Both the position numbers and the translations under genes were made by a program. Shown one piece after another: positions 2 to 55,683 of a stretch of 64,000 nucleotides of DNA. Every line of letters starts with the position of its first letter. Position 1 is the first letter of the stretch. The notes beneath the pieces are model-generated. The model was not told the DNA's origin, did not search any database, and was given only the letters and a program-made list of their open reading frames with translations. Source of the stretch: Patescibacteria group bacterium (GTDB taxonomy: Bacteria; Patescibacteriota; Minisyncoccia; Minisyncoccales; CAZWNE01); contig JBBTTI010000003.1 in the NCBI GenBank assembly GCA_038078735.1, positions 8,538 to 72,537 on the forward strand, given 5' to 3'.

Positions 2-691
2 CCTGTTAAGATTATTGCTGAAAAATATAATATTCCTGTTGGACATTCAATGTCTAACATAAAAGACTTGAAACCAGATTTAATTGTGGTGGCTGCTTAT
101 GGTCAGATTTTACCTAAAGAGATTTTGGAAATTCCTAAATATGGCTGTTTAAATGTTCATCCTTCTTTGCTACCAAAGTACAGGGGTGCAACCCCTGTAC
201 AATCTGCTATTCTAAACGGCGATAAGGAAACCGGAGTCAGTATTATTAAAATGGTAGAAAGGGTTGATGCGGGCGGAATAGTATCTAGTATTAAGTGTTT
301 AGTATCCAGAGACGAGACTTATAAAACTCTCTCTGACAAATTAGCGGACTTAGGGACTAAGTCCCTAAGTGAAGTAATCCCAGATTGGGTGGAAGGGAAA
401 ATAAAAGCTTTGCCGCAAGATGAAACAAAAGCGACTTATACGAAAATGATTAAGAAAGAAGATGGACTTATTGACTGGAAGAGCTCAATAGATTATATTG
501 AAAAGCAAGTGCGAGCCTTAAATCCGTGGCCTAGCACCTATACCCTATATAACGGGAAAATATTAAAAATACTAAAGGTAGAAATAACAAACAATAAGCT
601 AATAATAAAAGAGGTCCAGCCGGAAGGAAAAAAACCGATGAATTTTGAAGATTTTCTCCGCGGACATAATGATTTTAAAATACCATGTTAA
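2..691 (+). CDS. fmt: methionyl-tRNA formyltransferase (5' end outside window)
   Basis: Open frame runs to base 2. Translation has Fmt motifs (VAAYGQILPKEIL, NVHPSLLPKYRGATPVQ) and the C-terminal domain. Confidence 0.85.
   Translation, partial: PVKIIAEKYNIPVGHSMSNIKDLKPDLIVVAAYGQILPKEILEIPKYGCLNVHPSLLPKYRGATPVQSAILNGDKETGVSIIKMVERVDAGGIVSSIKCLVSRDETYKTLSDKLADLGTKSLSEVIPDWVEGKIKALPQDETKATYTKMIKKEDGLIDWKSSIDYIEKQVRALNPWPSTYTLYNGKILKILKVEITNNKLIIKEVQPEGKKPMNFEDFLRGHNDFKIPC
349..369. repeat. family D palindrome inside fmt (CTTAGGGACT-a-AGTCCCTAAG)
   Basis: Perfect 10-1-10, in-frame (DLGTKSLSE). A further family-A-like site (GGACATTCAATGTCTAAC) lies at 38..58, also inside fmt. Confidence 0.75.
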
Positions 692-3247: not shown

Positions 3248-4486
3248 TTATACCGCAGATTGGCCGGCGAGAAAACCGGTGCTCCAGCAAAGCTGGAGAT
3301 TATAGCCGCCCGTCGGGCCGTGTAAATTAATAATTTCTCCGGCAAAAAACAAATTTTCAATCAATTTTGATTTCATAGTTTTTGCATCAATCTCTTTTAA
3401 AGAAACGCCTCCTGATGTGATTATCGCCGTTTCAAATCCTAATAACGATAAAACTGTCATTTTTAACCCTTTTAATAATTTAACCAATCCCTGCCTTTCT
3501 TCCTTTGTTATTTCGTTCACTTTTTTCAAGGGATTAATCCCTGATAACTCAATAATAATGGGAATTAATTTTTGAGGCAATAAATCCCTTAAAGAATTCT
3601 TAAAAAATTTCGTCCTATATTTTAGAAAATCGCTTTGAATTCTTTTATCTAGTACTTGTAAGTTAAGGGCGGGTTTCAAATCCAAATTTAATTCTACCTT
3701 ACCTTTATCTAAAAGTTCCCCTACTTTTCCGCTTAAATCCAAAACAATGGGACCGGATATGCCAAAATGAGTAAAAAGAAATTCGCCAAAACGGCTGTCT
3801 TTTTTCTTGCCATTCAGAAAAACCGTCAACTCAACATTTTTTAAAGATAGCCCTTGGGCCATTTTTGGCCAGGCCTCTTTTATTCTCAAAGGAACCAAGG
3901 CCGGTCTTAGTTTTTCAATCTTATGACCTAATTTTTCTGCCCATTGATAGCCGTCGCCCCGAGACCCGGTCTCGGGATACGATTTCCCGCCGGTAGCAAT
4001 AATGTAATTTTTAGCCGCGATTGTTTTATTATTATTTAAAATAATTTTTGCTATCTTATTATTATCTCTAATAATCTCTTTTACTCCGGAATTTGTAATA
4101 ATTTCAACCTCGCTTTTTTTCAGATAATCAATTAATATATCCAGCACATCGCTGGCTTTATCGCTTTCGGGAAATATTCTTTTTCCCCGTTCAATTTTTG
4201 TTTTCAATCCCCTCTTTTCAAAAAATTCAATGGTTTTTTCCACGCTAAGGGCCGCCAAAGGACTTAAAAGAAAATCCCCTTCTCTGCCATATTTTTTAAC
4301 AAGTTCTTGGGGATTGAAATCAGCTCTGGTGATATTGCTTCTCCCTTTTCCGGTAATTAATAATTTCCTGCCCAAAGAAGCGTTTTTTTCCAGCAACGCA
4401 ACTTTTCCTCCCAGCTCTCCGGCCCTTCCTGCCGCCATCATCCCCGCCGGTCCCCCGCCAATAACCACAACATCATAATTGAGCAT
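3248..4486 (-). CDS. NAD(P)/FAD-binding flavoprotein, HI0933/BaiN family
   Basis: N-terminal DVVVIGGGPAGMMAA Rossmann motif followed by GRKLLITGKGRSN, typical of the HI0933-like family. Confidence 0.7.
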   Translation of the reverse strand: MLNYDVVVIGGGPAGMMAAGRAGELGGKVALLEKNASLGRKLLITGKGRSNITRADFNPQELVKKYGREGDFLLSPLAALSVEKTIEFFEKRGLKTKIERGKRIFPESDKASDVLDILIDYLKKSEVEIITNSGVKEIIRDNNKIAKIILNNNKTIAAKNYIIATGGKSYPETGSRGDGYQWAEKLGHKIEKLRPALVPLRIKEAWPKMAQGLSLKNVELTVFLNGKKKDSRFGEFLFTHFGISGPIVLDLSGKVGELLDKGKVELNLDLKPALNLQVLDKRIQSDFLKYRTKFFKNSLRDLLPQKLIPIIIELSGINPLKKVNEITKEERQGLVKLLKGLKMTVLSLLGFETAIITSGGVSLKEIDAKTMKSKLIENLFFAGEIINLHGPTGGYNLQLCWSTGFLAGQSAV

Positions 4487-4500
4487 AAATAGTTTAATTT

Positions 4501-5472
4501 TTAATAATTTGTCGTAATCGTTCGGTGATAAGGCAATAACGGTTCATTTTCTTTAGATAAAACCCATAAAATCCAATCGAGATTACTTGATGTTAAACCC
4601 CTGCCTAAGCCGTTTAATTCCCCAAGGAGCAATTCACAAGCATAAATGGTATTTGTCCTTATTTCTATTTCTTCCCGAGAATTCTTTTCAATTAACTCAT
4701 AATTCGCGAGCTTATTCTTTAATTTTTCACTATAAACTAGTATCCCCTCTGACTCTAAAAGTTGTGGCAACTTATAATCGGCAAATATAGTTAGATCTTC
4801 CATGTTTTTAAAATATCCCGTATTCTTATTTTGAAAAGCGTAATTTATATCACTGACAAATAATTGGGCTCTTTTTAAAAAATATATCTTTTGTCCATTG
4901 GATTCGAAATAATCATTAAAACTTGGGAAATCATTAATAATTAACTCCACAAGTTTATTAACGTTATTTTTTGCCGCCGTAACTAAATTTATAGCCTTGC
5001 CATTATATTTTTCTTGAAGTATTTTAAAGTTTTCTCGGATAATTTCGTGTCGTTCTTTCAACAGTAATAACTCTCCCCTACTCTCAAAAATCTTAGCAAA
5101 TTCGTCAAAAGTTATTTCCGACAAATATGATGCATCAAGTAATTTTTTATCAGCTAAAAACGCTTTTTTAATCGCGTAAGAAAAAGCGTAATAGCCATGC
5201 AGCCACTGGTCGTCTTTTTCAAACTCCCACCGTTTTTTCTCTTGAGTATTCCAAAAACAAAAATTAATACTATCTAGAAAAAAATAGTATTGAACAGTTT
5301 CTTCGGGACTCCCTAAAAATTGCAAGACATTATCCCAGCCAGGAATAGGATATTTTTCAAGTTTTTTTGCTAAAAGAGTAATTTTCGAATTATCTATCCT
5401 AACCGAAGAACTGTTTTTTACAACAGGATCAATTGATCTTAAAATTTTTTCTTTGATAGAAATATTCTCCAT
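4501..5472 (-). CDS. DUF2419/Qng1-like queuosine salvage family protein (tentative)
   Basis: 323 aa. Motif pattern (IPGWDN, FFLDSINFCFW, LHGYYAFSYA) is recalled from the Qng1/DUF2419 family. The assignment is from memory and is not certain. Confidence 0.45.
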   Translation of the reverse strand: MENISIKEKILRSIDPVVKNSSSVRIDNSKITLLAKKLEKYPIPGWDNVLQFLGSPEETVQYYFFLDSINFCFWNTQEKKRWEFEKDDQWLHGYYAFSYAIKKAFLADKKLLDASYLSEITFDEFAKIFESRGELLLLKERHEIIRENFKILQEKYNGKAINLVTAAKNNVNKLVELIINDFPSFNDYFESNGQKIYFLKRAQLFVSDINYAFQNKNTGYFKNMEDLTIFADYKLPQLLESEGILVYSEKLKNKLANYELIEKNSREEIEIRTNTIYACELLLGELNGLGRGLTSSNLDWILWVLSKENEPLLPYHRTITTNY

Positions 5473-5522
5473 AATAAATCTATCATATCAAAAAATCGCC
5501 CCGATGAAAGAGGGACGATTTT

Positions 5523-5580
5523 TTTACTCTATAAATGTCAGGGCCTTGCCTTTTTTGTTCCAGCGGCCGGTTCGGCCGAA
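5523..5580. repeat. 58-bp copy of the helicase 3' end (direct repeat bounding island 1)
   Basis: tttactctataaatgtcagggccttgccttttttgttccagcggccggttcggccga nearly equals 6536..6592, which encodes ...GRTGRWNKKGKALTFIE-stop of the DEAD-box helicase. Confidence 0.8.
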
Positions 5581-5792: not shown

Positions 5793-5917
5793 GGTATTTT
5801 TGAGTTGTCTATCTGGACAAAAGAACTGTTTTTTATAACAGGATCAATCGATCTTAAAATTTTCTCTTTTATAGAAATATTCTCCATAATATATTTATCC
5901 TATCAAAAAATCGCCTG
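5793..5917. pseudogene. duplicated 5'-end fragment of the DUF2419 gene (start codon + first ~30 codons + upstream hairpin)
   Basis: About 125 bp at ~88% identity to 5381..5507 (aagaactgttttttacaacaggatcaattgatcttaaaattttttctttgatagaaatattctccat...). It has no downstream gene body. Confidence 0.75.
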
Positions 5918-6436: not shown

Positions 6437-6536
6437 TGTTCTCACCTCCTTTCTGTAAAAATTTGGAAACGAGAGAGAAACCTTTAAGGTGCTTTGGAAA
6501 GAATTCTACTCTCTTTCCATACCATATGATAACACT

Positions 6537-7736
6537 TTACTCTATAAATGTCAAGGCTTTGCCTTTTTTGTTCCAGCGGCCGGTTCGGCCGATTCTGTGG
6601 ATATATTCGTCAAAAGTCGCCGGCACATCAAAATTAATAACATGGCTGACATCGGCAATATCAAGACCCCTAGCCGCCACATCAGTTGCCACTAAAATTT
6701 GAATACGGCTTTCTTTAAACATAGTTAGGGCTTTTTGGCGCTGGGAGTGATTTTTATTTCCGTGGATGGATTCCGCCCTAAAACCTTTTTGAATAAGTAT
6801 TTTTGAGAGCCGTTCCACTCCGTGCTTGGTTCTGCCGAAAATAAGCACCTTGGTAAATTCCTCTTTAATCAAAAGATTATCAAGAACATCTATTTTATTT
6901 TTACCCCGATCTATTCTGACAATATCCTGATCAACATTACTTGAAGTGTCTCTGGTTTTTACCGAAACTCTTATCGGATTTTTAAGAAATTCTTTGATAA
7001 TTTTTTCCACCGAGTAAGGAATGGTTGCCGAAAAAAACAGCACCTGTTTTTCTTTTGGCAAACCGTTCATTATAAAACGGGTGTCCTGGATAAAACCCAT
7101 ATCAAGCATCCGATCAGCTTCATCCAAAACAACGGTATTAAATCTGGATAAATTAATCATCCTTCTTTCTATCAGGTCCTTGAGCCGGCCGGGCGTGCCG
7201 ATAATTAAATTATAATTATAGCGAAGCTCGGAAATTTGTTTGCCGATGCTCATTCCGCCGACGCAGCAAACGGAAAAAATCCGCATTCCTTTAGTAAAAG
7301 ATTTAAGCTCCTGGTCTATTTGAATGGCCAACTCGCGGGTCGGAGTGACAATCAAAACTTGTTCTTTCGGATTTAATAAAATTTTATTAATAAGGGGTAT
7401 GAGAAAAGCGGCTGTTTTGCCCGTGCCGGTATTGGCAATACCGACAACATCCGAACCGTCAATAATATGAGAAATAATCCGATCTTGGATGGGCGTAGGC
7501 GCATCGTAACCTTTGGCCAAAATAGCCCGAATTATTCGCTGGTCAATTTTAAAATCCTGAAATTTGTGTTCAGATATAAAATTCTCCATTCCTTCTATCT
7601 TTTCAACTACGACTGCTTTATTAATAAATCTTGCCGGATCTATTCTTTCTCCGCGTGAAAACCCCCTTCCTCTAGAAGGGGGCGCTTTAGTCAAGAATTT
7701 TCTTGATCCCGTGTAATGAAAGTTTCTACTATACAT
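6537..7736 (-). CDS. DEAD-box ATP-dependent RNA helicase
   Basis: Q-motif, Walker A GTGKTAAF, DEAD (VLDEAD), SAT and HRIGRTGR motifs. Confidence 0.9.
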   Translation of the reverse strand: MYSRNFHYTGSRKFLTKAPPSRGRGFSRGERIDPARFINKAVVVEKIEGMENFISEHKFQDFKIDQRIIRAILAKGYDAPTPIQDRIISHIIDGSDVVGIANTGTGKTAAFLIPLINKILLNPKEQVLIVTPTRELAIQIDQELKSFTKGMRIFSVCCVGGMSIGKQISELRYNYNLIIGTPGRLKDLIERRMINLSRFNTVVLDEADRMLDMGFIQDTRFIMNGLPKEKQVLFFSATIPYSVEKIIKEFLKNPIRVSVKTRDTSSNVDQDIVRIDRGKNKIDVLDNLLIKEEFTKVLIFGRTKHGVERLSKILIQKGFRAESIHGNKNHSQRQKALTMFKESRIQILVATDVAARGLDIADVSHVINFDVPATFDEYIHRIGRTGRWNKKGKALTFIE

Positions 7737-7758: not shown

Positions 7759-8868
7759 CTATTGCTTTGTCAATAAATATTGCTTACCCTTTAATTTATC
7801 GGGTAAAAATGACTCTTTGGAGTATTTATCGTAACCGTTGCCGGGATTGTTACGCAGTTCCATGGGAATGGGCAAATTGCCATATTGTTTGACATCGGCC
7901 GTTGCCGCTATATAAGCTTCGTAAGCGCTCCGATCTTTTTTAGCTTGGCATAAATAAACCACTCCGGTTGCCAGATTAATGCCGCATTCAGGCAAACCGA
8001 TTATTTCTACTGCCCTAAAAACATCGTTAGCCACCACCAAGGCCGTAGGCAAAGCTAGGCCGATATCTTCTGAAGCAAAAATAACCATTCTTCTGGCGAT
8101 AAATTTGGGATCTTCCCCCGAATCAATCATCCGCGCCAAATAATACAAAGCCGCATCTGGCTGCGAAGCCCTCATGCTTTTAATAAAAGCGGAAATAGTG
8201 TTGTAATGCTCATCCCCTGCTTTGTCGTATCTTAAAAATTTTGACTGGAGAGCATTTTTTAAATTCTCTTTAGTAATTTCCTTATAAAGTTCTCTAGTAT
8301 TTTCCAGCATAGTTATCGCCTGCCTGGCATCGCCATTGGCCATGTTAATCAGCCAGTCCTCGGCTTCTTTATCCATTTTTAAACCGATTCTCTTGATAAT
8401 GGCTTTCATATTATCTTCTGAAAGTTCGTTCAAAACAAAAACTCGACAGCGAGAAAGCAGAGCCGGGATAACTTCAAAGCTTGGATTTTCAGTTGTCGCG
8501 CCAATCAAGGTAATCTCCCCTCTTTCAACATAAGGCAGTAAAAAATCCTGTTGTGATTTGTTAAAGCGATGGATTTCATCTAAAAATAAAACCTTGGGCA
8601 CTCCCTGCGAATCTTCTTCCAGTAATTTTTTTATATCTGCCTTGCCAGCTGAAACAGCTGATAATTCATAAAGCTTAGCGTCTAAACTATTGGCATATAT
8701 TTTAGCCAAAGTCGTTTTTCCTGTTCCCGGAGGCCCCCACAAAACAAAAGAAAACAAATGCTTTTGCTTTATAGCAACATTCAAGGGCCTATTCTCCCCG
8801 ACCAAATGTTCTTGCCCGACAAATTCCTCCAAATTTTTCGGTCTGATTTTCGACGCCAGCGGTTCCAT
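7759..8868 (-). CDS. rarA: replication-associated recombination protein A (AAA+ ATPase)
   Basis: [11 protein letters not shown] Walker A and a MgsA/RarA-type C-terminal domain. Confidence 0.85.
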
Positions 8869-8943
8869 AAATTTAGCTTACCTTTTCATTTCATCTCCGC
8901 CAAGAGACAACTATTTGGACATCGGATGTCCAAATAGCGTAGG

Positions 8944-9078
8944 CTATTTTTTATTTATGTATTTTAATAAAGCGATTATGCCTAAAACCAACAGGGTAGT
9001 CGCTAAAGTATAGGTAATCCAAGAAAAAAACATCATCCCGCCGCCTGCTCCGCCCATCATATAATTATAATCCATCAT
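8944..9078 (-). CDS. possible 44-aa Met/Gly-rich membrane peptide
   Basis: MMDYNYMMGGAGGGMMFFSWITYTLATTLLVLGIIALLKYINKK. It falls below the ORF-track cutoff, has no clear SD, and hairpins lie just upstream. Confidence 0.2.
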   Translation of the reverse strand: MMDYNYMMGGAGGGMMFFSWITYTLATTLLVLGIIALLKYINKK

Positions 9079-9261
9079 AGATCAAGTCCGCCTCTGGCGG
9101 ACGCAGATAAAGATGAAGCAACAGCTTCATCGCCTAATCGACCTTTCTATATTTTATTATACACTAAATTTTTAATTTATTATCAAACCCCACCAGTAGT
9201 AATAACTATGCTATAGCAATGATATTACTATTCCTAAATTTTATATTTGAATAAATAAGAA

Positions 9262-11387: not shown

Positions 11388-11597
11388 TTTGTTTCCCTCC
11401 TTTTTTTATTTATATTAAATCCTATATTAAATGGTTTTATTCAAACCCATCTCTTTTTTAAGTTACGATCTAATAAAAAACAATATCATATTTTTGTAAT
11501 ATTGTCAATGATTTTAGGTAATGTATACAGACATATTGCACTTTTGTAGGTAATCTGGTGGCATATGAAAACTATGCCAAAATCCACAAAAGTGGTT

Positions 11598-11618
11598 GTT
11601 AGACATTGAATGTCTAAC
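11598..11618. repeat. REP-like palindrome, family A (perfect 8-5-8: GTTAGACA ttgaa TGTCTAAC)
   Basis: Perfect inverted repeat in the intergenic space. Confidence 0.8.
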
Positions 11619-11645
11619 ATCCTAATTGTGTCGGGGGGAATGTTT

Positions 11646-16252: not shown

Positions 16253-17686
16253 ATGCTTAAACTTTATAATACTTTATCGCGAAAAAAGGAAATATTGAGA
16301 CCCTTCGCTAAGGCTCAGGGCGAAAAACTAAAGTTTTTCATCTGCGGGCCGACGGTTTATGATTTTTCTCACTTAGGCCACGCCAGAACCTATATTGCTT
16401 TTGATATGATCGTGAAATATCTAAGGCAAAAAGGATATGATGTTTTTTATCTGCAAAACATAACTGATCTTGATGACAAAATCATAAAACGTGCGGAGGA
16501 AAAAAATATTACGCCCCAAAAGTTAGCCAGAGATTTTGAGAAAGAATATTTAAAAGATATTAAGGCCCTTAAAATAACCAGCGTTTCAAAATACGCCAGA
16601 GCCACGGATTATATTAAGGAAATTATCAGTCAGACAGAACGACTTTTGAAAAAGGGTTTTGCCTATCAAATAGAAGACGGAATTTATTTTGATATTTTAA
16701 AATTTAAAGATTACGGCAAACTTTCACGGAGAACGGTTCTCCGGGCCGAAGACGGAGTTTCTCGGATTGATGAAAGTGTTAAAAAAATAAATAAAGGCGA
16801 CTTCTGCTTGTGGAAATTTTCAAAACCAGAAGAACCAACATGGACTAGTCCGTGGGGTCAAGGCCGGCCCGGGTGGCATATTGAAGATACGGCCATTACG
16901 GAAAAGTTCTTTGGATCGCAATACGATATTCACGGCGGCGCCAGAGATCTGATATTTCCCCATCATGAAGCGGAAATATCCCAAATGGAAGCGATTTCCG
17001 GTAAAAAACCTTTGGTAAAATATTGGCTTCATACCGGATTTTTAACCGTCGATGGCCAGAAAATGTCAAAATCACTGGGGAATTTCATTACTATCCAAGA
17101 TTTTCTCAAAAATCACTCGCCCCGCTTACTCCGATTTTTAGTCATAAAAAGCCACTATCGATCTCCGATTGATTATAGTGAGAAAGTTATTTCTCAAACT
17201 AAAAAAGAATTGGAACGGATAGATGAATTTATTGATAAACTATTGAGGCCGAACCTCCATAGTTTAAAATCGGGGAGGTTCGGCCTCTTAAAATTCAAGA
17301 ACGCTTTTGATAACGCTATGAATGATGATTTTAATACGTCAAAGGCAATAGCTGTAATTTTTAATTTGATTAATAAAGGAAACGCTATAATTGCCCAAAA
17401 TAAATTATCTTCTAGCGATGCTAAAAATATTTTAGGCTTTTTAAAAATAATTGATAAATTCTTTGGTTTTATCTTTTGGCAGAAATCCGAAAATAAGCAA
17501 CCTCAGAGGTTGCTTAGCCTAGTTAAGCAACGGCAAAAATATCGGGAACAGGACAATTGGCAAAAAGCTGACGAGATGAGAGAGGAAATTAAAAAACTAG
17601 GATATTCAATAGAAGACACAAGTAAAGGACCAGTAATTAAAAGAAGCTTAGCTTCTCACTTAGAAGCTAAGCTTCTAAGTACCTAA
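16253..17686 (+). CDS. cysS: cysteine--tRNA ligase
   Basis: HLGHARTY and KMSKSLGN class I motifs. The last ~12 codons are encoded by a family B palindrome. Confidence 0.9.
   Translation: MLKLYNTLSRKKEILRPFAKAQGEKLKFFICGPTVYDFSHLGHARTYIAFDMIVKYLRQKGYDVFYLQNITDLDDKIIKRAEEKNITPQKLARDFEKEYLKDIKALKITSVSKYARATDYIKEIISQTERLLKKGFAYQIEDGIYFDILKFKDYGKLSRRTVLRAEDGVSRIDESVKKINKGDFCLWKFSKPEEPTWTSPWGQGRPGWHIEDTAITEKFFGSQYDIHGGARDLIFPHHEAEISQMEAISGKKPLVKYWLHTGFLTVDGQKMSKSLGNFITIQDFLKNHSPRLLRFLVIKSHYRSPIDYSEKVISQTKKELERIDEFIDKLLRPNLHSLKSGRFGLLKFKNAFDNAMNDDFNTSKAIAVIFNLINKGNAIIAQNKLSSSDAKNILGFLKIIDKFFGFIFWQKSENKQPQRLLSLVKQRQKYREQDNWQKADEMREEIKKLGYSIEDTSKGPVIKRSLASHLEAKLLST
17495..17515. repeat. intragenic perfect palindrome AAGCAACCTC-A-GAGGTTGCTT inside cysS
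   Basis: 10-1-10 inverted repeat read in-frame as ...KQPQRLLS... Confidence 0.7.
17642..17676. repeat. REP-like palindrome, family B (AGAAGCTTAGCTTCT cactt AGAAGCTAAGCTTCT), copy 1
   Basis: Perfect 15-bp arms. It forms the C-terminus and stop region of cysS. Near-identical copies lie at 19683 and 33072, with a variant at 32942. Confidence 0.85.
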
Positions 17687-19677: not shown

Positions 19678-19682
19678 TTAAA

Positions 19683-19717
19683 AGAAGCTTAGCTTCTCAC
19701 TTAGAAGCTAAGCTTCT
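19683..19717. repeat. REP-like palindrome, family B, copy 2 (between convergent recR and rplU; overlaps the rplU stop codon)
   Basis: Identical 15-5-15 palindrome. Confidence 0.85.
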
Positions 19718-20033
19718 AAGACTTGAGGTCAATGGTTTTAATCTCTACTTCAGTAAATTGCTGACGATGGCCCTTTTTGAGGTGATAGCGTTTTTTGGCT
19801 TTATATTTAAAAATAATTACTTTTTTGGCCTTTCCCTGACTTAGTACTTTTCCCGTCACCTTAGCTCCTTTAACAGTTGGAGATCCGATCTCCAATTTAT
19901 CGTCTTTCTCCAAAAGCAAAACTTCGTCAAAGATAACCTCTTTGCCGTCTTCAATTTCCAGTTTTTCAATTTTAACTTTTTCTCCGGGTTTAACAATATA
20001 TTGCTTTCCCCCGGTTTTAATCACAGCCAACAT
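19716..20033 (-). CDS. rplU: 50S ribosomal protein L21
   Basis: MLAVIKTGGKQYIVKPGEKVKIEKL. Start placed at the internal Met that matches the bL21 N-terminus. Confidence 0.85.
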   Translation of the reverse strand: MLAVIKTGGKQYIVKPGEKVKIEKLEIEDGKEVIFDEVLLLEKDDKLEIGSPTVKGAKVTGKVLSQGKAKKVIIFKYKAKKRYHLKKGHRQQFTEVEIKTIDLKS

Positions 20034-21064: not shown

Positions 21065-21833
21065 TAGCGAGAAGTGTTCTCGCTAATATTTATTCAATTA
21101 CAACTTGATCAAAATCGGCTAATTCTTTTTTAGATTGCAACCAATCGTTAACAAATCTTTGGCAGCCTTGAACGCCGCCCATTAGTTCGGTTAGAAATTC
21201 CCTGCTGGTTAAAGATGGAAAATTTTTCTCGTCTAAATAATCTATGTAGCTTGACCAGCGATATTTCTTTAAAAATTTTAATACTTTCTGAAAGTCCCCA
21301 CCCTTAATCCCCTTTTCTTTCCAACCCGGAACTATTATCGCCACAGGGTTAGTATGAATATAAACAAAAACGGTCATTAGTTGATTGTCATTTTTAATAT
21401 GAACTAGCTTATATCTTCCATCAAACAAATGTCCGCTTCTTTTATATTTTTTATTATAATATCCGCCGTACCCAGCGCCAAGCTTTCTCATAAATTTACT
21501 AATCCCACCTTCGCCAAGCTGTCTAAGCAATAAATGGATATGATTCGGCATCAAACAAAACGCCAATATCTCCACTAATAGTTTTCTCTTCCTTCTTTTA
21601 TCCCTTTCTAATAGTCCGAGAAATGTTCTCGAACTATTGAAACTTCGACGAAAATTCCATAACGCTGGCGCTTCATCGTTAAATTCAAACAGATCATGAA
21701 TCATCCTAAAATAATCTTTTTCGTCGCGAAAAAGCTTCAAGCCTTCTATCGCTCTGATTACAACATGGTATATTTCTCCAGTAACTAATGGCGGTCGTTT
21801 TGTGGACATATAATGTGCCGAGAAATGTTCTCG
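21065..21833 (-). mobile_element. RAYT/IS200-like unit 1: Y1 transposase gene flanked by CGAGAA..TTCTCG hairpins
   Basis: TAGCGAGAAgtgTTCTCGCTA at 21065..21085, CGAGAAatgTTCTCG at 21819..21833, and an intragenic copy at 21617..21631. Confidence 0.6.
21090..21809 (-). CDS. COG1943 / IS200-like HuH Y1 transposase (REP-associated tyrosine transposase-like)
   Basis: HuH motif LMPNHIHLLL and the YIHTNPV tyrosine motif. Paralogous to 40181..40879. Confidence 0.7.
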   Translation of the reverse strand: MSTKRPPLVTGEIYHVVIRAIEGLKLFRDEKDYFRMIHDLFEFNDEAPALWNFRRSFNSSRTFLGLLERDKRRKRKLLVEILAFCLMPNHIHLLLRQLGEGGISKFMRKLGAGYGGYYNKKYKRSGHLFDGRYKLVHIKNDNQLMTVFVYIHTNPVAIIVPGWKEKGIKGGDFQKVLKFLKKYRWSSYIDYLDEKNFPSLTSREFLTELMGGVQGCQRFVNDWLQSKKELADFDQVVIE

Positions 21834-21863
21834 CTAGTTTATAATAACACAGAACCTTTCTAT

Positions 21864-27502: not shown

Positions 27503-27585
27503 CAGAGGGGTGTCCTCCGCTGTTTTCTGTGGTTGGCTTAGCCAACCACAACTACTGCTTAATCTGGAAGGTTTCAGGGTTAATT
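27503..27585. repeat. ~83-bp direct repeat (left copy) duplicating the 3' end of the clpB-like gene; boundary of island 2
   Basis: cagagg..tcctccgctgttttctgtggttggcttagccaaccacaactactgcttaatctggaaggtttc is about 93% identical to 29175..29259. This left copy has in-frame stops. Confidence 0.8.
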
Positions 27586-27597
27586 TTTATTCGAAAT

Positions 27598-27618
27598 GAT
27601 AGACGTTCAACGTCTATC
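27598..27618. repeat. REP-like palindrome, GATAGACGTT-c-AACGTCTATC variant
   Basis: Perfect 10-1-10. Sister copy at 35690..35710. Confidence 0.7.
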
Positions 27619-27662
27619 ATTCGTCTATTACTATGTTTATCACTATTTTAATAATAAAAAGG

Positions 27663-27702: not shown

Positions 27703-28782
27703 TTAACTCAGCTCTCCGATTGCTACGCCACGAAACTGCTTACGCTTTTGAAGACTTTGCTCTTCAAGAATTTTGCGGTTTGCCGGTGTAATGGTAGCAA
27801 TAATATCGCCGATCGAATCGGATTTGCCTTGCGACATTTTGTAGAGATTCGCTATTCCCGCGAGCGTCATCTCCCGACCATCTTTGGCAAAATGGTTAGC
27901 AACCCAAGCGATCATTCTTGCATCCTCACCGACATAAGCGATGTCGGAAAGCGCGAAAACTCGGCCCTTGCCATTAAACATCATTGTCAGACCCTCGCCC
28001 TTGAGCCACTCCACGACCTGAACATCAGTCTGGCTGTCCCCGACATACATCACCCTCCTTTTTGGAATGCCGAATCTTTGACAAACCGTTTCCATTACCT
28101 CCCGCTTCTGGGTTTGGCCAACAGGATGAACCGTCCTTAGTAATCGGCCGACAGGCATATTGTAAACCTTGTCCCAAATAAATCTGGTGAATTCGTCGTA
28201 GTCGGCTTGATGTTCAGGAACGATATCCCCTGTTTCTTTGTAGTAATCAACAACTGGTTTTCTAGCGATTGATACCATGAAGCCCAGGAGTTGCGCTGTT
28301 TCTGTCGCACTGATAGGAATCTCATCAAACCCCGTAACTCTAGTACAGTTGGTCTGACTGAAATTGAATCCCACCTTGTGACAATACGCCCTGACAAACC
28401 ACTCGTAGCTGGTGGAAATCATCCAGACATTGCAGCCGCGACGAAGATCGGTCAAGGCCTCTTTGACAAAAGGCACCACTCGGAGACTCTTACTGGAAAA
28501 ATCTTGTAACCATCGAGAGTCAGCTCCCATCGCCTTGAAGAACGGCAGAACAACTTTCAAGGTATGACCGGAAGAATAGTTTGGGTCTTGGGGAATTAAA
28601 TGACAGTCGCCCCATACGTCATCAATCCCACTAAACCTCGCGTAGGCGCGCTCCCCGATTTCTTTACCTAAGCCGGACTTTTCAGCCAATGCCACCATAA
28701 TCTGTTGAGCATTGTCATTAATGACTTGCGGCCCTTCCAAATCCAGGATAACCCAAATTCCATTTATTTTTACCCACCTCAT
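27703..28782 (-). CDS. hypothetical HAD-like hydrolase-fold protein (atypical motif I) on a GC-rich island
   Basis: 359 aa at about 48% GC. N-terminal WVILDLEGP has DxE in place of DxDG. C-terminal VMYVGDSQTDVQ resembles HAD motif IV. Family assignment is tentative. Confidence 0.4.
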   Translation of the reverse strand: MRWVKINGIWVILDLEGPQVINDNAQQIMVALAEKSGLGKEIGERAYARFSGIDDVWGDCHLIPQDPNYSSGHTLKVVLPFFKAMGADSRWLQDFSSKSLRVVPFVKEALTDLRRGCNVWMISTSYEWFVRAYCHKVGFNFSQTNCTRVTGFDEIPISATETAQLLGFMVSIARKPVVDYYKETGDIVPEHQADYDEFTRFIWDKVYNMPVGRLLRTVHPVGQTQKREVMETVCQRFGIPKRRVMYVGDSQTDVQVVEWLKGEGLTMMFNGKGRVFALSDIAYVGEDARMIAWVANHFAKDGREMTLAGIANLYKMSQGKSDSIGDIIATITPANRKILEEQSLQKRKQFRGVAIGELS

Positions 28783-29174: not shown

Positions 29175-29259
29175 CAGAGGTCTGTCCTCCGCTGTTTTCT
29201 GTGGTTGGCTAAGCCAACCACAACTACTGCTTAATCTGGAAGGTTTCGGGGTCGATTTC
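29175..29259. repeat. ~83-bp direct repeat (right copy), overlapping the intact clpB-like 3' end and stop
   Basis: See 27503..27585. Includes the GTGGTTGGCTaAGCCAACCAC hairpin. Confidence 0.8.
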
Positions 29260-32134: not shown

Positions 32135-32458
32135 CTACTCCCTTAAGATACTGTCTAACTCGTCAAGGATATCTTGGGGCACTGGTATGGACTTGCCGAT
32201 TGGACTTCTGGCCGGATACCGCCAAGTACTAATAATTTTTATTTTTGATATTTGATTTTTAATTTTAGTTATCACATACATCAACCATATCTCGGTTGGA
32301 TGTTTCTTGGTGCCGGTAATTTGCATTGCGGCCAAAGTGTCAGGCGCTATCCCCTCTTCTTTTCTGTCGGGCCGACGCAAAACTCGCAGAACCCTTTGTT
32401 CGGAAAGCCGATACTGCCGCATTTTAATTTTTGAATGTTGAGTCCAACTTAATAACAT
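32135..32458 (-). CDS. hypothetical protein (possible small toxin-like fold)
   Basis: About 95-107 aa ending ...KIKIISTWRYP. Weak resemblance to DUF4258-type proteins. Overlaps the prmC 3' end. Confidence 0.35.
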   Translation of the reverse strand: MLLSWTQHSKIKMRQYRLSEQRVLRVLRRPDRKEEGIAPDTLAAMQITGTKKHPTEIWLMYVITKIKNQISKIKIISTWRYPARSPIGKSIPVPQDILDELDSILRE

Positions 32459-33063
32459 TTGAGATAACGATATTTTTTAAATTGGTCTTTAAAAAATTGA
32501 TATTTTTTATAACCGAATTTTTCCAGCATTTTTTTGATATCTTCTTTTTGCAATGGATCGAATTCCATAAAGATCATATTACTTTTGTCTTTAGCTTCTC
32601 TCAAAAATATCTTAATAATATCTAATCCTTTTTCTCCGGAAAAAAGAGCGATGTGCGGTTCTTTTTCCAAAACCGAAAGTTGGACTTCATTGATGCGTTC
32701 CGTTGCTATATAAGGCGGGTTGGCAAAGATGACATCGTATTTTTTCCTTCTGATTTTTTCAAACAAATCTGATTTATAAATTTTATATCTTTTTGGAGAT
32801 ATTCTATTAAGCTTTAAATTAATTTTAATCTGCTTAATCGCGCCTTCATATATATCAACGAAGTCTACTCGACTATTTTTAATATTTTTCAAAACAGCAA
32901 CCCCAATGCATCCCGAACCGGCAAATATATCTAACGCTTTTAGAGGCTTAGCTTCCTTTTGGAAGCTAAGCCTCTTCAGAGCTTTTTCTACCCAGAATTC
33001 AGTTTCAATACGAGGAATCAAAACTTTTTCCCTTAAATCAATTTGACAGTTTAAAAATTTCAT
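32449..33063 (-). CDS. prmC: release factor glutamine N5-methyltransferase PrmC/HemK-like
   Basis: SAM-binding DIFAGSGCIG and the NPPY motif (FANPPYI). An in-frame family-B-variant palindrome lies at 32942..32975. Confidence 0.8.
   Translation of the reverse strand: MKFLNCQIDLREKVLIPRIETEFWVEKALKRLSFQKEAKPLKALDIFAGSGCIGVAVLKNIKNSRVDFVDIYEGAIKQIKINLKLNRISPKRYKIYKSDLFEKIRRKKYDVIFANPPYIATERINEVQLSVLEKEPHIALFSGEKGLDIIKIFLREAKDKSNMIFMEFDPLQKEDIKKMLEKFGYKKYQFFKDQFKKYRYLKCY
32942..32975. repeat. family B variant palindrome (AGAGGCTTAGCTTCC tttt GGAAGCTAAGCCTCT) inside the prmC coding sequence
   Basis: Perfect 15-bp arms, read in-frame as ..KRLSFQKEAKPLKA.. Confidence 0.8.
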
Positions 33064-33071
33064 ATCCCAAA

Positions 33072-33106
33072 AGAAGCTTAGCTTCTCACTTAGAAGCTAA
33101 GCTTCT
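33072..33106. repeat. REP-like palindrome, family B, copy 3 (between the tgt stop and the prmC start)
   Basis: Identical to copies 1 and 2. Confidence 0.85.
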
Positions 33107-33109
33107 AAT

Positions 33110-35281: not shown

Positions 35282-35689
35282 TTTTTTCGTCCTTTTTCTT
35301 TTCTTTTTCCGCCTTCATTTCTGCAACTCCTTGTCCTGTTTTTTCTTGGCCTCCTTGCCAGAAAAACTCATCAAGTCGTTCAGAAAGCCGATCGGAAATA
35401 TTGCTGCGAAGCAGCAATAAAATGACTAATTAATAATCAGCTTATTGCTACTTCGCAACTCCTTATTAAATTTTTAAAGAAGCTGGTTTCAATGCCTAAA
35501 TTATATCATACTACTCCAACTTTGTCAAGTTTTTGTACTGGTTCACATAATATGATACACCCAGCACTTGAAAAATATGAAAGGCAGGTACAATGGTTGC
35601 CGTATGACAATCTACGGCACAATTCTGCCCGGAGCAGCCGCTATTGCCCGTTCGGCGTTCCTGACAGATAAATTAACGGAGCGTGAGAT

Positions 35690-35710
35690 GATAGACGTTG
35701 AACGTCTATC
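35690..35710. repeat. REP-like palindrome GATAGACGTT-g-AACGTCTATC
   Basis: Perfect 10-1-10, followed by CATTAC as at 27619. Confidence 0.7.
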
Positions 35711-35748
35711 ATTACATTTCTCTCAAAAAAAAGGCACGGTGGAGAAAT

Positions 35749-36009: not shown

Positions 36010-36101
36010 TCTATTGCCTCCTCCATATTTTATTCTAAATAAACTACTAATCTACTAATTAAACTATATTATATATCTCAAATTTAATCAACAATTAGAA
36101 A

Positions 36102-36122
36102 TGTTAGACGTCTGGCGTCTAA
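36102..36122. repeat. REP-like palindrome family A variant GTTAGACG-tctgg-CGTCTAAC
   Basis: Perfect 8-5-8. Identical core at 55651..55671. Confidence 0.8.
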
Positions 36123-36146
36123 CATTACATCGCACAACTTGCGAGA

Positions 36147-40157: not shown

Positions 40158-40939
40158 GTAGATGTTTGACATCTACAAGCCTAATCAATTGATAATTTCC
40201 CAAGAATTTCTTTAGTATTTCTAACTAAAAGAGCATTATAAATAAATTCCTTATAACTTTTATTATTACCAGATGATAGTCCTAAACTATTTCTATCCCC
40301 TTCATCTATAATAAATAGATTACGTTTTAATAAAGTATCCTGAAGACTGCTAAAAGAATAATTTGTAGCAAAATCAAAAGCCTTATCAAATTGTTTAACG
40401 GCCGCCTCTGTCCCTCCGGGATAAAGTTCAATTGGATTCAAAACTTGAATATAAGCGTCAAGATACTGGATATACTCATCATTTTTTATTGTTTTTGACT
40501 TATATGATCCTTGGAAAACTTTCCCCGATTCTTTATATTTTGTATTAATATAATTAGTGAAACCACCACTAAGTTTTTTCATAAACATACTTACTCCGCC
40601 TTCCTTTATTTCTTTTAGCAGCAAGTGAAAATGGTTTGGCATTAAACAAAAAGAGAGAATTTTTACTAACGGTTTTGGCACCGGCCATTCTGCTGGCCTA
40701 CTAAAAGTATTATTTTTTACTTGACGAAAAATATTAGATAAAGAATATTCGTCATTAAAATAACGAAGAATTTTCAAAAAACGCCATTTATCATTATCGT
40801 CTTGTGTAATCGGCATTTTCCGATTACCTCGATTATAAACGTGGATATAATCACCCACCGTAAATGCTTCTTTTCTCATAGGTTTATTTTAATCCAATCC
40901 ATCCGTAGGTGTCAAACCGTAGATGTCAAACATCTACGG
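40158..40939 (-). mobile_element. RAYT/IS200-like unit 2: Y1 transposase gene flanked by GTAGATG..CATCTAC hairpins
   Basis: GTAGATGT-ttg-ACATCTAC at 40158..40176 and CCGTAGATG-tcaaa-CATCTACGG at 40917..40939, plus a degenerate half-copy at 40902..40915. Confidence 0.65.
40181..40879 (-). CDS. COG1943 / IS200-like HuH Y1 transposase (RAYT-like), paralog 2
   Basis: LMPNHFHLLL HuH motif, GGVSMFMKKL, YIQVLNP tyrosine-region motif. Paralogous to 21090..21809. Confidence 0.7.
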   Translation of the reverse strand: MRKEAFTVGDYIHVYNRGNRKMPITQDDNDKWRFLKILRYFNDEYSLSNIFRQVKNNTFSRPAEWPVPKPLVKILSFCLMPNHFHLLLKEIKEGGVSMFMKKLSGGFTNYINTKYKESGKVFQGSYKSKTIKNDEYIQYLDAYIQVLNPIELYPGGTEAAVKQFDKAFDFATNYSFSSLQDTLLKRNLFIIDEGDRNSLGLSSGNNKSYKEFIYNALLVRNTKEILGKLSID

Positions 40940-43330: not shown

Positions 43331-44008
43331 TTAATTGCCAATATTTTTGCCGTATCTTGATCGCCACTCCTGAATTTTTTTGTGGTTGCCCGAAATCAAA
43401 ACCTTGGGCACTCGCCACTTTTTAAAAATTTCGGGGCGCGTATATTGCGGATATTCAATAAAGCCTTTAGTTTTTGTAATTCTCTCTTTCAATAATTGAG
43501 GTTTGCCCAAGACTCCGGGGATTAATCTTGCTACTGTTTCCGTTAAAACCATTGCCGGCAATTCCCCGCCCATCAAATCATAATCCCCTATTGATAATTC
43601 CATATCTGCCAAATTTTTTGCCACTCTTTCATCCACCCCTTCGTATCTGCCGCAAATCATAATAATCTGATTTAATTTTGAAAGTTTGTAAGCAATCTGC
43701 TGATTAAATTTTTTCCCGCGAGGAGTAAATAAAACCACTTTTCGCTTAGAGGGACTTAGTCCCTTTTTTAAGGGACTAAGTCCCTTAACGGCTTTATATA
43801 TCGGTTCGATTTTTAGTACCATACCAAGGCCCCCGCCAAATGGCCGATCGTCAACCGTCCGGTGGACATCGGATGTCCACTTCCTTAGATTATGGACATT
43901 AATCTTGATCAATTTTTTTGCTTGGGCTCTGGCAATTAAGCTCTCGCTTAAGTAAGAACTGAATAAATTTGGAAAAATTGTTATTATGTCAAAAGAAAGC
44001 CGCGCCAT
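43331..44008 (-). CDS. trmD: tRNA (guanine37-N1)-methyltransferase
   Basis: SPOUT knot motifs (HRTVDDRPFGGGLGMV, ICGRYEGVDERV, IGDYDLMGGELPAM). Confidence 0.9.
   Translation of the reverse strand: MARLSFDIITIFPNLFSSYLSESLIARAQAKKLIKINVHNLRKWTSDVHRTVDDRPFGGGLGMVLKIEPIYKAVKGLSPLKKGLSPSKRKVVLFTPRGKKFNQQIAYKLSKLNQIIMICGRYEGVDERVAKNLADMELSIGDYDLMGGELPAMVLTETVARLIPGVLGKPQLLKERITKTKGFIEYPQYTRPEIFKKWRVPKVLISGNHKKIQEWRSRYGKNIGN
43750..43785. repeat. family D palindrome inside trmD (AGGGACTTAGTCCCTT tttt AAGGGACTAAGTCCCT)
   Basis: 16-bp perfect arms. Each arm is itself a GGGACT-t-AGTCCC palindrome. Read in-frame as KGLSPLKKGLSPSKRK. Confidence 0.8.
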
Positions 44009-46882: not shown

Positions 46883-47557
46883 TCAGAATTTGAAACTATT
46901 TCTATGTATAGCACATCGTCCAAATCTTTTCAACATTTCAAGGTGTAATTTCGTTCCATAGCCCTTATGAAGATCAAATCGGTATTTTGGGAACTTTTTA
47001 TGATACTTGAGCATTATTCTGTCCCTCGTCACTTTGGCTAAAATTGAAGCCGCGGCGCAGGAAAAAACTTTTTCATCGCCCTTCACGATTAGTTTGTAGT
47101 TTATAATTTTTAGTTTATAGTTTTTGATATTATTGCCGTCTATTATCAAAAAATCGGGCTTCAACTTTTTAATCGCTCTTGCCATCGCTAACTCTGCCGC
47201 ATTTTTAATATTAATCTTATCTATGATTTTTTCTGAAACAATGCCAATCCCCCATCTTATATTTTTATCTTTTGTTATTAAGTTATAAAAAAATTCCCGC
47301 TGTTTTGCAGATAATTGCTTTGAGTCCCTAATTTTTAGGAGAACGCTTCTCCCTTGGAGAAACGTTCTCCAATTTATTATCACCGCTCCTGCCACCACCG
47401 GCCCGGCCAACGGCCCACGGCCGGCCTCATCCAACCCAGCCACATTCTTAAATCCTTTTTTCCACAATTTTTTTTCTTCCGCTAGTGTCGCATACCGCAT
47501 GTTTTTTATTTTAGCACAAAAAAAGATGGGAAAGTTAGATAAATCTAACTTTCCCAT
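46883..47557 (-). CDS. rnhB: ribonuclease HII
   Basis: GLDEAGRGPLAGPVVAGAVI and later DSK...AASILAK motifs. The true start may be the internal Met (MRYATLAEEK). Confidence 0.85.
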   Translation of the reverse strand: MGKLDLSNFPIFFCAKIKNMRYATLAEEKKLWKKGFKNVAGLDEAGRGPLAGPVVAGAVIINWRTFLQGRSVLLKIRDSKQLSAKQREFFYNLITKDKNIRWGIGIVSEKIIDKINIKNAAELAMARAIKKLKPDFLIIDGNNIKNYKLKIINYKLIVKGDEKVFSCAAASILAKVTRDRIMLKYHKKFPKYRFDLHKGYGTKLHLEMLKRFGRCAIHRNSFKF

Positions 47558-47569
47558 CCTAAGGACTAA

Positions 47570-55270: not shown

Positions 55271-55650
55271 ATCCTAACCGGCGCCTATTGTAACTCTACC
55301 CAAAGAGTTGTGAGAACCATCGCTAGCCTCGAAAAAAATACTATTATCATTGACCAAAACGGTCAATGATGGCAGTCCTAGACTGCCTAAGCGATGGGCC
55401 TCAGTTCGGAATGATTCCCAATTATCGCGAAGTAACCTCTCCGCCCTTTTGGCTGCCATATCGAATTCCATTTTTTCCTCCTTCTCACGCCTGCCTAAAT
55501 AGGTCAGGACTTATAGAGTACAAGGCCGCTATTTCCCTAGCGGCGAGATGAACACCAGCGGAGAACCGTTCTCCGTTAAGCTGACGATCATTTCGCCGCC
55601 AAGGAATTTTATAAAAGAGCTTTCCCAAATCTGAATTCGCAATTTAGAAT

Positions 55651-55683
55651 GTTAGACGTCTGGCGTCTAACACCACGTCTAAC
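55651..55683. repeat. REP-like palindrome family A variant (GTTAGACG-tctgg-CGTCTAAC + extra CGTCTAAC arm)
   Basis: Same core as 36102..36122. Confidence 0.8.

Follow-up and report, generated by a model that had tools for sequence, protein, structure and literature searches.

Perfect short palindromes lie in frame within the window genes fmt, trmD, cysS, prmC and rnhB, the window being a 64,000-nucleotide stretch of DNA from a Patescibacteria group bacterium that was analysed as a whole. In this study, we argue that these palindromes are probably copies of several families of short hairpins resembling repetitive extragenic palindromes (REPs). Most are arranged as inverted doublets of ~33-48 nt, i.e. 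as miniature REP doublets forming hairpins (REPINs), and they occur alongside multiple hairpin-flanked HUH/Y1 genes that resemble those of REP-associated tyrosine transposases (RAYTs). Three outcomes are distinguished at coding sites: addition of a unit (trmD, rnhB, the cysS tail, GltX and others), long residence with compensatory change (prmC), and conversion of an existing segment at the same length (fmt, the internal cysS site and a trmD motif). Unit addition fits mobility, and same-length conversion needs copying between similar hairpins or template switching (PMC8794818); this is the best-supported account of the data.

Palindromes in coding DNA exceed expectation

The TrmD protein of the window has an exact match in metagenome assemblies of the Hainich aquifer (well H14) and in an NCBI metagenome-assembled genome (MAG) annotated 'Patescibacteria group bacterium'. 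The genome is AT-rich (38% GC); the window holds 61 open reading frames (ORFs) of at least 100 aa, and long ORFs make up ~82% of it. NCBIfam matches confirmed the identities of fmt, within which the window begins (233 bits), trmD (270) and cysS (492), and the match to the prmC/HemK family (146 bits) lies above the HemK-family cutoff and below that of the PrmC equivalog.

Palindromes with perfect stems and loops of at most 8 nt were counted and compared with two null models, dinucleotide-preserving shuffles of the whole window and shuffles of synonymous codons that keep each protein encoded by the 61 ORFs. For stems of at least 9, 10, 11 and 13, the whole window contained 46, 30, 21 and 10 palindromes, compared to 6.2, 1.7, 0.5 and 0.03 in the first model. 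Within the ORFs the respective counts were 22, 15, 9 and 4, compared to 3.8, 1.15, 0.48 and 0.075 in the second model, so that palindromes are ~13-fold over-represented given the proteins. Since this excess is seen under synonymous shuffling, the coding palindromes are a DNA-level feature and not a consequence of the amino acid sequences. Their density is ~2.1 per kb outside long ORFs and 0.42 per kb inside (~5-fold). All tested elements fold into stable single-stranded DNA hairpins (free energy -9 to -18 kcal/mol, z -5.4 to -8.2), and the intragenic copies are in frame and free of stops.

An earlier reading, made from the letters of the window without database searches (the sequence-only reading), had called such palindromes unexpected in coding DNA, with which the shuffling test agrees (15 vs 1.15 for stems of at least 10 in the ORFs). 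The palindromes it cited are all in the sequence, with coordinates within 1-2 bases. Those at cysS 17245-17287, rnhB 47338-47370, fmt 178-200 and trmD 43862-43880 and two Y1 transposase genes were absent from it.

That the palindromes reflect chance, composition or codon usage, or an assembly artefact has a negligible probability. The AT-richness of the genome would favour chance, as would peptides such as LNxVK and LGAKLL, for which palindromic codon choices exist; against it stands a 13- to 50-fold excess over dinucleotide and synonymous-codon shuffles. An assembly artefact is ruled out by identical elements, including the trmD sequence, in independent assemblies and runs. Contamination by sequencing linkers is excluded by the in-frame conservation in orthologous slots with variable spacers.

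Dispersed hairpin families

Family B (AGAAGCTTAGCTTCT-CACTT-AGAAGCTAAGCTTCT) consists of a 7-1-7 hairpin present as an inverted doublet, and its 35-mer occurs three times identically in the window (cysS 3' end, recR-rplU and tgt-prmC). Family C has the architecture of B with compensated stems (AGGGACT-T-AGTCCCT; core AGGGACTAAGTCCCT). Relatives carry additional AGAAACT-N-AGTTTCT types, the common form being AGRRR-CTNAG-YYYCT. Family D is TGTGGTTGGCT-W-AGCCAACCACA, and family A comprises the TTAGAC/TTGGAC...GTCTAA/GTCCAA hairpin group; both have several copies in the window. Elements of the B, C, E and rnhB types are built as X-spacer-reverse complement of X, with T at the centre of the first hairpin and A at the centre of the second. 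Copies outside the housekeeping genes are as follows.

19678 to 19721, plus strand: family B unit, intergenic, between the convergent genes recR and rplU
33067 to 33108, plus strand: family B unit, intergenic, between the tgt 3' end and the prmC start
11597 to 11619: family A hairpin TGTTAGACATT-G-AATGTCTAACA, intergenic
8911 to 8937, 27595 to 27621, 35688 to 35712, 36100 to 36126 and 55650 to 55672: family A-related copies
27528 to 27550: family D hairpin TGTGGTTGGCTTAGCCAACCACA, in no ORF of at least 100 aa, with a partner at 29200-29222

A search of metagenomes for the B doublet yielded 49 loci, among which contigs of the same Hainich H14 sample contribute at least 12 additional units. The unit of ~45 nt reads (T)CGTTAAAA-GAAGCTTAGCTTCTCACTTAGAAGCTAAGCTTC-TAAGTTT, and past its ends the flanks are unrelated. 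A shared unit in unrelated flanks is the sequence signature of a dispersed, recently copied element. Exact matches also connect sites that are not orthologous, namely a 15-mer in fmt and trmD, a 17-mer in trmD (43862-43880) and the intergenic copy at 8911, and an 18-mer in fmt 36-58 and the intergenic copy at 11597. The family D hairpin of 27528-27550 is also found within cysS of the relative L012 and as the Pth tail in L105.

Units added to proteins

Three window genes have gained residues at a doublet.

43742 to 43789, minus strand: trmD, 48-nt patch GTTAAGGGACTTAGTCCCTTAAAAAAGGGACTAAGTCCCTCTAAGCGA, a family C inverted doublet with a 16-4-16 palindrome at 43750-43785
17637 to 17684, plus strand: cysS, C-terminal tail RSLASHLEAKLLST (stop), read-through of a family B unit (TTAAAAGAAGCTTAGCTTCTCACTTAGAAGCTAAGCTTCTAAGT)
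47338 to 47370, minus strand: rnhB (RNase HII), double hairpin GGAGAACGTTTCTCC-AAG-GGAGAAGCGTTCTCC, encoding RTFLQGRSVLL

The trmD palindrome encodes KGLSPLKKGLSPS, and the peptide from the patch is also given as GLSPLKKGLSPSK. In TrmD homologues from the PDB this loop is shorter by 6 aa. P0002 and P0003, the closest relatives, stem from other Hainich samples, the latter from well H43; they have 218 aa compared to 225 and read KAIKAVKKSGAK, as does the wider family. Their DNA is ~99% identical to the window, except that 27 nt correspond to the 48 nt GTTAAG...CTAAGCGA of the patch, a net gain of 7 aa. Set against near-identical sibling DNA, the patch marks the trmD event as recent and polymorphic between samples. 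The patch combines the unit length and end motifs of the B type (GTTAA...CTAAG) with stems of family C. The proposed REP insertion at this site therefore stands as to the palindrome and the added residues, whereas a clean insertion is ruled out by the DNA alignment, 27 nt having been replaced by 48 nt. In a weak AlphaFold structure model of TrmD (mean predicted local distance difference test score 62.6), the patch forms a helix end and a low-confidence loop before strand 89-95. A cluster look-up for near-identical protein variants returned singletons only.

At the cysS 3' end, a 15-5-15 palindrome (17642-17676) with a nested 11-1-11 (17658-17680) encodes RSLASHLEAKLLS before the stop. CysS relatives end in ...GPKIKK[LI] followed by the stop codon; the window continues with SLASHLEAKLLST (stop), the stop codon being displaced. 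The last 12 codons had been attributed to a family B element, and this is confirmed, the tail running ~12 residues past the normal ...IKK[LI] end. In the closest relative the slot has a different extension with a different hairpin, and the downstream intergenic sequence is conserved.

The rnhB loop carrying the doublet is 8 aa longer than that of T. maritima RNase HII, and in L129 a B doublet lies in the same loop. A 13-nt core of the rnhB doublet is common to a hairpin in L012 (8863-8885), which lies inside a stop-free frame (8254-9216) matching a Y1 protein. As a separate observation, a perfect 16-2-16 palindrome, GATGGGAAAGTTAGAT-AA-ATCTAACTTTCCCATC at 47525-47558, overlaps the annotated rnhB start. 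The RNase HII match starts only at about residue 25-37, so the true rnhB start may lie downstream.

In the fetched metagenome contigs, in-frame copies of the B doublet were found in more than 15 different genes, including those of LigA, MiaA, LepA, GltX, Tgt, UvrA, CysS, GDH, DprA, Pth and RNase HI as well as Y1 ORFs. In GltX it adds 10 aa between catalytic motifs. The encoded peptides RSLAS..EAKLL, GSLAS..EAKLP and KLSF..KLSF correspond to the two frames of each hairpin that are without stops, TAG or TAA being present in the third. Pth of L105, a Hainich H14 contig, has two repeat-derived segments, an internal B doublet (RSLASKREAKLL) and a ...SVVGLANHK end from family D. In L099, L133 and L141, Y1 (RAYT-like) ORFs hold an in-frame B doublet (SKLSFGYPKLSF / WKLSFGSPKLSF) in a variable region before the HUH motif.

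At least one host of the B doublet is distant from the clade of the window, its CysS being ~40% identical to the fetched Patescibacteria sequences. A further-reading claim, possible but in our estimation doubtful, concerns the 13-bp doublet GAAGCT(T/A)AGCTTC and its compensated variants. These could form a mini-element, compatible with coding, that passes between uncultivated bacteria of distant relationship and settles at conserved positions in essential genes (aminoacyl-tRNA synthetases, UvrA, LigA, RNase H, LepA, even Y1 genes), where a dedicated hairpin-copying mechanism would hold it as a perfect palindrome in the same protein slot over very long times. If true, this would amount to a REPIN lineage that invades proteins and has a maintenance system of its own, possibly with a structural DNA or RNA role, and not to ordinary REP spill-over.

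Palindromes written over existing sequence

Other palindromes in fmt, cysS and trmD, several of them at sites where the protein has kept its length, are as follows.

348 to 370: fmt, perfect 11-1-11 ACTTAGGGACT-A-AGTCCCTAAGT with the family C core
36 to 58: fmt, family A-like hairpin TGTTGGACATT-C-AATGTCTAACA, 10/11 pairs
178 to 200: fmt, perfect 10-3-10 GTACAGGGGT-GCA-ACCCCTGTAC, encoding KYRGATPVQ, a singleton
17494 to 17516: cysS, 11-1-11 TAAGCAACCTC-A-GAGGTTGCTTA, no length change
17245 to 17287: cysS, perfect 14-15-14 inverted repeat in a variable region (aa 332-345)
43862 to 43880: trmD, 9-1-9 GTGGACATCGGATGTCCAC inside the conserved WT.D.HRTVDD motif, length unchanged

The first of these, originally read as 349-369, is borne out and one pair longer. 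It is a same-length overwrite with DLGTKSLS in place of the consensus DLGAKLLS. Alignment of residues 116-123 with the DKLAELGxxxL segment of solved Fmt structures and with relatives needs no gaps, which rules out an insertion. The closest relative (L010, 85% aa identity) reads ACTTAG-GAGCT-A-AGCTT-CTAAGT with 10/11 pairs and the window ACTTAG-GGACT-A-AGTCC-CTAAGT, the five differing positions being spread over both arms. The near-palindrome of L010 is one base off the right hairpin of family B; more distant relatives have a weak palindrome or none and encode LGAKLL. By its A-to-T and L-to-S changes the window deviates from the consensus and acquires exactly the 15-mer found in the trmD element.

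The fmt element at 36-58 had been described as a perfect palindrome at 38-58. It is present, but spans 36-58 and has one mismatch, and the 18-nt string quoted for it is too short for 38-58. It is identical in 21 of 23 nt to the intergenic family A copy at 11597-11619. In this slot L147 has a different perfect 9-1-9, which recurs in rplU of the window except for the central loop base. At fmt 178-200, GPSPIQ is encoded in three sequenced relatives, where no palindrome was detected; the window differs from L010 in 8 of 23 nt here, compared to ~8% overall. Two observations on the Fmt protein stand beside this. A Nealsonbacteria Fmt (P0178), 59% identical overall, has the exact 21-residue stretch KYRGATPVQSAILNGDKETGV of the window (residues ~59-80), where closer relatives have KYRGPSPIQ; either a recombination patch or convergence could be the cause. 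Further, an 11-residue segment (DKPVGRKQIIT-like) upstream of the window is absent from the window Fmt and its closest relative (P0125/P0126) and present in all other aligned relatives.

In cysS, the palindrome noted at 17495-17515 was found as an 11-1-11 at 17494-17516. It is an overwrite of the same length; gapless alignments to PDB homologues and relatives rule out an insertion. The slot holds a 13-1-13 of family D in L012 (peptide SVVGLANH), a decayed D-like copy in L014 and another 13-1-13 in L024, and none in most relatives. The left part AACTATTGAGGCCGAACCTCSATAGTT of the 14-15-14 repeat at 17245-17287 recurs in another H14 contig (L104). The density of palindromes is patchy across 80 cysS loci: most have 0-0.2 per kb, and the window, L012 and a few others reach 0.4-0.7 per kb. 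The trmD palindrome at 43862-43880 coincides with the reading SDVH of its clade in place of the consensus KDRH.

The idea that REPs were inserted or captured into ORFs while the proteins stay functional is thus partly sustained. Dispersed REP-like families exist, and some in-frame additions leave the reading frames intact, but at fmt 348-370, cysS 17494-17516 and trmD 43862-43880 the length did not change. The orthologue alignments that had been proposed as a check give the same division: added length at trmD and the cysS tail, gapless columns at fmt 348-370 and cysS 17494-17516, and a prmC segment common to relatives.

As an alternative, the palindromes could arise in situ by template switching (quasi-palindrome correction, inverted duplication) on native coding DNA, the 'families' being secondary or due to similar starting sequences. 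We consider this unlikely; the observations in its favour are as follows. The cysS of L012, which contains four perfect palindromes with stems of at least 12, has 7 additional aa at 4331-4359 directly before the GRPGWH motif, which is identical in 9 of 9 aligned sequences. The right arm of this palindrome consists of the native GRPG codons GGT AGG CCC G and the left arm of their reverse complement. At fmt 348-370 the relatives form a gradient from no palindrome (L148) through a weak one (L147) and 10/11 pairs (L010) to 11/11 in the window. The singleton at fmt 178-200 shows clustered differences, several coding palindromes have no relatives elsewhere, and the mechanism itself is documented (PMC8794818, PMC7202029), also in coding sequence (PMC8604942).

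Other sites speak against an origin in situ. Neither arm of the trmD doublet is present in the ancestral-type allele of the siblings. Family B comprises at least 15 near-identical units at unrelated loci, with spacer and ends conserved, the doublet sits in more than 15 different genes, and unrelated loci have exact 15-18-mers in common. At both fmt 348-370 and 178-200 the two arms have changed, which a single switch does not do.

L012 also provides a side observation on a family of its own, TGTTGAAGTC-W-GACTTCAACA, with copies in L012 (4740-4764 and 4775-4799), L010 (10220-10240) and L011 (5754-5774). The two L012 copies are adjacent within cysS, and the right arm of one coincides with the DFNK codons.

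A long-resident palindrome in prmC

The prmC palindrome represents the outcome of long residence.

32942 to 32975, minus strand: prmC, 15-4-15 palindrome, a family B variant encoding KRLSFQKEAKPL

The peptide LSFQKEAK(L/P)L is common to prmC relatives of 65-83% identity, in which the DNA palindrome is kept while neighbouring codons vary synonymously. The stems read AGAGGC...GCCTCT in the window and its sibling, AGAAGC...GCTTCT (a compensatory pair) in a Joint Genome Institute groundwater contig and a Nealsonbacteria MAG, and GAAACTCAGTTTC...GAAACTGAGTTTC in another relative. Over six sequences, 94% of cells are paired, compared to 23-61% in slid controls, and 4 of 15 pairs have changed on both sides. 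By these comparisons the prmC element is old. The palindrome itself had been correctly recognised; its interpretation as a lineage-specific insert did not hold, given that peptide and palindrome are common to such diverged relatives. The PrmC/HemK homologue (32449-33063), a methyltransferase, has 204 aa and starts at about residue 88 of T. maritima HemK, without the N-terminal helical domain; its relatives are equally short.

Such conservation raises the question of whether the hairpins are selected cis-elements, i.e. protein binding sites or RNA or DNA structures for transcription, mRNA processing, translation or replication, kept by selection and not by mobility. The compensatory pairs of prmC, with synonymous variation beside them, fit this explanation. 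So do slots in cysS, fmt and RNase HII that hold different palindromes in different genomes, and a 13-bp B hairpin invariant across distant hosts. In addition, two of three B units in the window can be read as placed and oriented to follow the minus-strand genes tgt and rplU by their T-run. This T-run exists only on the minus-strand reading and fits tgt and rplU, not cysS. Simple intrinsic terminators are unlikely on the same ground, the T-run being on one strand only, and would leave the intragenic copies unexplained.

We nevertheless regard selected cis-elements as a quite improbable explanation. The elements have no common position (trmD codon 75; fmt ~155; cysS 332, 414 and the stop; prmC 30), and the many unrelated hairpin sequences make a single binding protein unlikely. 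The trmD element is absent from near-identical strains, and hairpins override conserved residues, as in the change of DRH to DVH in TrmD. An Rfam search of the window returned six tRNAs only and no family for the hairpins.

Hairpin-flanked Y1 genes

Two Y1 transposase genes lie between inverted hairpins in the window.

40158 to 40939, minus strand: Y1 gene 40181-40879 with GTAG-bearing inverted hairpins GTAGATGTTTGACATCTAC (40158-40176) and CCGTAGATGTCAAACATCTACGG (40917-40939)
21065 to 21837, minus strand: second Y1 gene 21090-21809 with flanks TAGCGAGAAGTGTTCTCGCTA (21065-21085) and CGAGAAATGTTCTCG (21819-21833)

Both proteins match Pfam Y1_Tnp above threshold and have the HUH motif. The genes are paralogous (IS200-like), encode ~230 aa and have a flanking hairpin type each, CCGTAGATGT-CAA-ACATCTACGG with its inverse and GCGAGAA-GTG-TTCTCGC. 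GTAG is present in the 40158/40917 flanks (CCGTAGATGT) and in L012 (GTAGAGA), and absent from families B, C and D. No further copy of the hairpins at 40158 and 40917 was found within the window. In L107, from another organism, a Y1 gene is flanked by family B hairpins, the downstream doublet lying inside the neighbouring RNase HI ORF. Among contigs of the same sample, A-type hairpins flank a Y1 gene on either side in L104 and also lie beside one in L113, where a single side is visible. Y1 genes with their own inverted flanking hairpins are also found in L132, L012 and L092. Judged by sequence, this arrangement matches the defining layout of REP/RAYT systems, in which RAYT genes are flanked by inverted REPs (Nunvar 2010, PMC2817692). 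The sibling strain has an extra Y1 copy immediately downstream of prmC (L092 1326-2015), a site at which the window is without one.

Discussion

Taken as copies of mobile hairpin families, the palindromes could have originated as follows. Units would be copied to new sites via single-stranded hairpin intermediates handled by Y1 enzymes, and we infer that the Y1 enzymes described here act on these hairpins. Copies would survive selection only if they are in frame, lack stops and lie in tolerant loops or at the ends of proteins. The arms would then be kept perfectly complementary, and related hairpins would replace each other or native sequence resembling them, probably by hairpin-templated repair (template switching) and gene conversion. 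The peptides RSLAS..EAKLL, KLSF..EAKL and GLSP..GLSP would be by-products, i.e. open frames of the hairpins.

Several findings weigh against this account. Same-length overwrites cannot come from transposition at all, and the GRPGWH palindrome of L012 points to a de novo inverted duplication of local sequence and not to import. The trmD event also removed 27 nt, and IS200/IS605-type transposition is not known to delete target DNA in this way. The best NCBIfam match of both Y1 proteins is 'REP-associated tyrosine transposase' (NF047646), with 35 and 44 bits compared to a cutoff of 80. For the RAYT motif NP[LV][RK]xG, which adjoins the catalytic Tyr, there are only approximate counterparts (YIQVLNPIEL, YIHTNPVAII). 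Families B, C and D have a common centre CTNAG and no GTAG or CGTC head. Across ~240 kb of Hainich sequence, neither B nor C hairpins were seen to flank a Y1 gene. Family C occurs only in trmD and fmt, with no intergenic donor among 146 fetched loci. Finally, a 13-bp B hairpin identical in hosts whose CysS proteins are ~40% identical is unusual for REPs, which normally diverge fast.

The closest known systems are REP/REPIN-RAYT systems (PMC2817692; Bertels & Rainey 2011, PMC3116915). These likewise have many short hairpin copies, often as inverted doublets, Y1/HUH genes with inverted flanking hairpins, several systems per genome, and most copies just 3' of genes. The units described here are far smaller (15-23 bp hairpins, 33-48 nt doublets) and perfect instead of imperfect. 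B, C and D are without the GTAG head, and the Y1 proteins are divergent, have ~230 aa and do not reach the NCBIfam RAYT cutoff. A large proportion of the copies lies within genes, and one hairpin sequence is common to distantly related hosts.

Palindromic repeats in frame within genes have reportedly been described as Rickettsia palindromic elements (RPEs) by Ogata et al. in 2000. RPE-1 has ~100-150 bp and the units in our study 33-48 nt, a comparison of size and not of sequence homology. Intragenic REPs are documented as well, with a bias to repair and replication genes (Di Nocera 2013, PMC3733652). As with our elements, intragenic GTAG/CGTC REPs (PMC3733652) and RPEs lie in frame in unrelated housekeeping genes, including uvrA, uvrB and others of replication and repair, their dimers encode short peptides, and copies occur at ORF ends. 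The elements in our study differ in their Patescibacteria host, in adding ~7-12 residues compared to 20-30 from REP dimers (PMC3733652), in the same-length overwrites and in slots that persist with compensatory evolution. Intragenic REPs and RPEs are thus already known; a literature search found no description of intragenic hairpin repeats in Patescibacteria.

Template-switch or quasi-palindrome mutagenesis (PMC8794818; PMC7202029; PMC8604942) resembles our data in that clustered multi-nucleotide changes make or perfect inverted repeats, and it accounts for the one native arm in L012 cysS. It leaves unexplained the multi-copy families with defined unit ends and the trmD patch, both arms of which are foreign. 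Perfect inverted repeats in functional protein-coding genes, both arms being translated, are also described for Nematomorpha mitochondria (PMC6649704). They differ in being up to 284 bp long, organellar and not dispersed families, and the abstract describes no association with a transposase. In fungal mitochondria, small mobile double-hairpin elements are said to occur in coding regions and between genes (Paquin, Laforest & Lang, 2000); they are mitochondrial, have no known sequence relation to our elements and are not known to involve a Y1 transposase.

Three further candidates were set aside. Inteins were dismissed because the inserts have only 7-12 aa. For diversity-generating retroelements, no template repeat or reverse transcriptase was noticed, though no search aimed at them was made. 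Restriction-site effects might be suspected from the CTNAG/GCTNAGC centres, but there are many distinct stems, as opposed to one recognition site.

Our findings imply that a genome with so little non-coding DNA still hosts hairpin-repeat/Y1 systems. A DNA-level process can add or rewrite short peptides in core translation and repair enzymes, sometimes overriding residues that are consensus in relatives. The trmD gene with and without the element in one aquifer is a dated natural experiment and the prmC slot with its compensatory evolution a deep one. Together they offer a route to study how palindromes enter coding DNA, persist and stay perfect. For annotation, this means that repeats may be the source of lineage-specific inserts and C-terminal tails in Patescibacteria proteins, and that clustered substitutions in alignments may be single palindrome-making events, not independent mutations.

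Further observations in the window

The family D hairpins at 27528-27550 and 29200-29222 have opposite orientation (centre T vs A) and bracket a 1.65-kb segment, possibly a hairpin-bounded cassette, in which a HAD-hydrolase-like ORF (27703-28782) lies together with a small ORF. In the k-mer list, stretches of 50-77 nt are repeated nearby at 5400-5476 and 5821-5899 and at 5523-5579 and 6536-6592. They take in the 5' end of the ORF 4501-5472 and the 3' end of the ORF 6537-7736, which suggests local segmental duplication or gene-end remnants.

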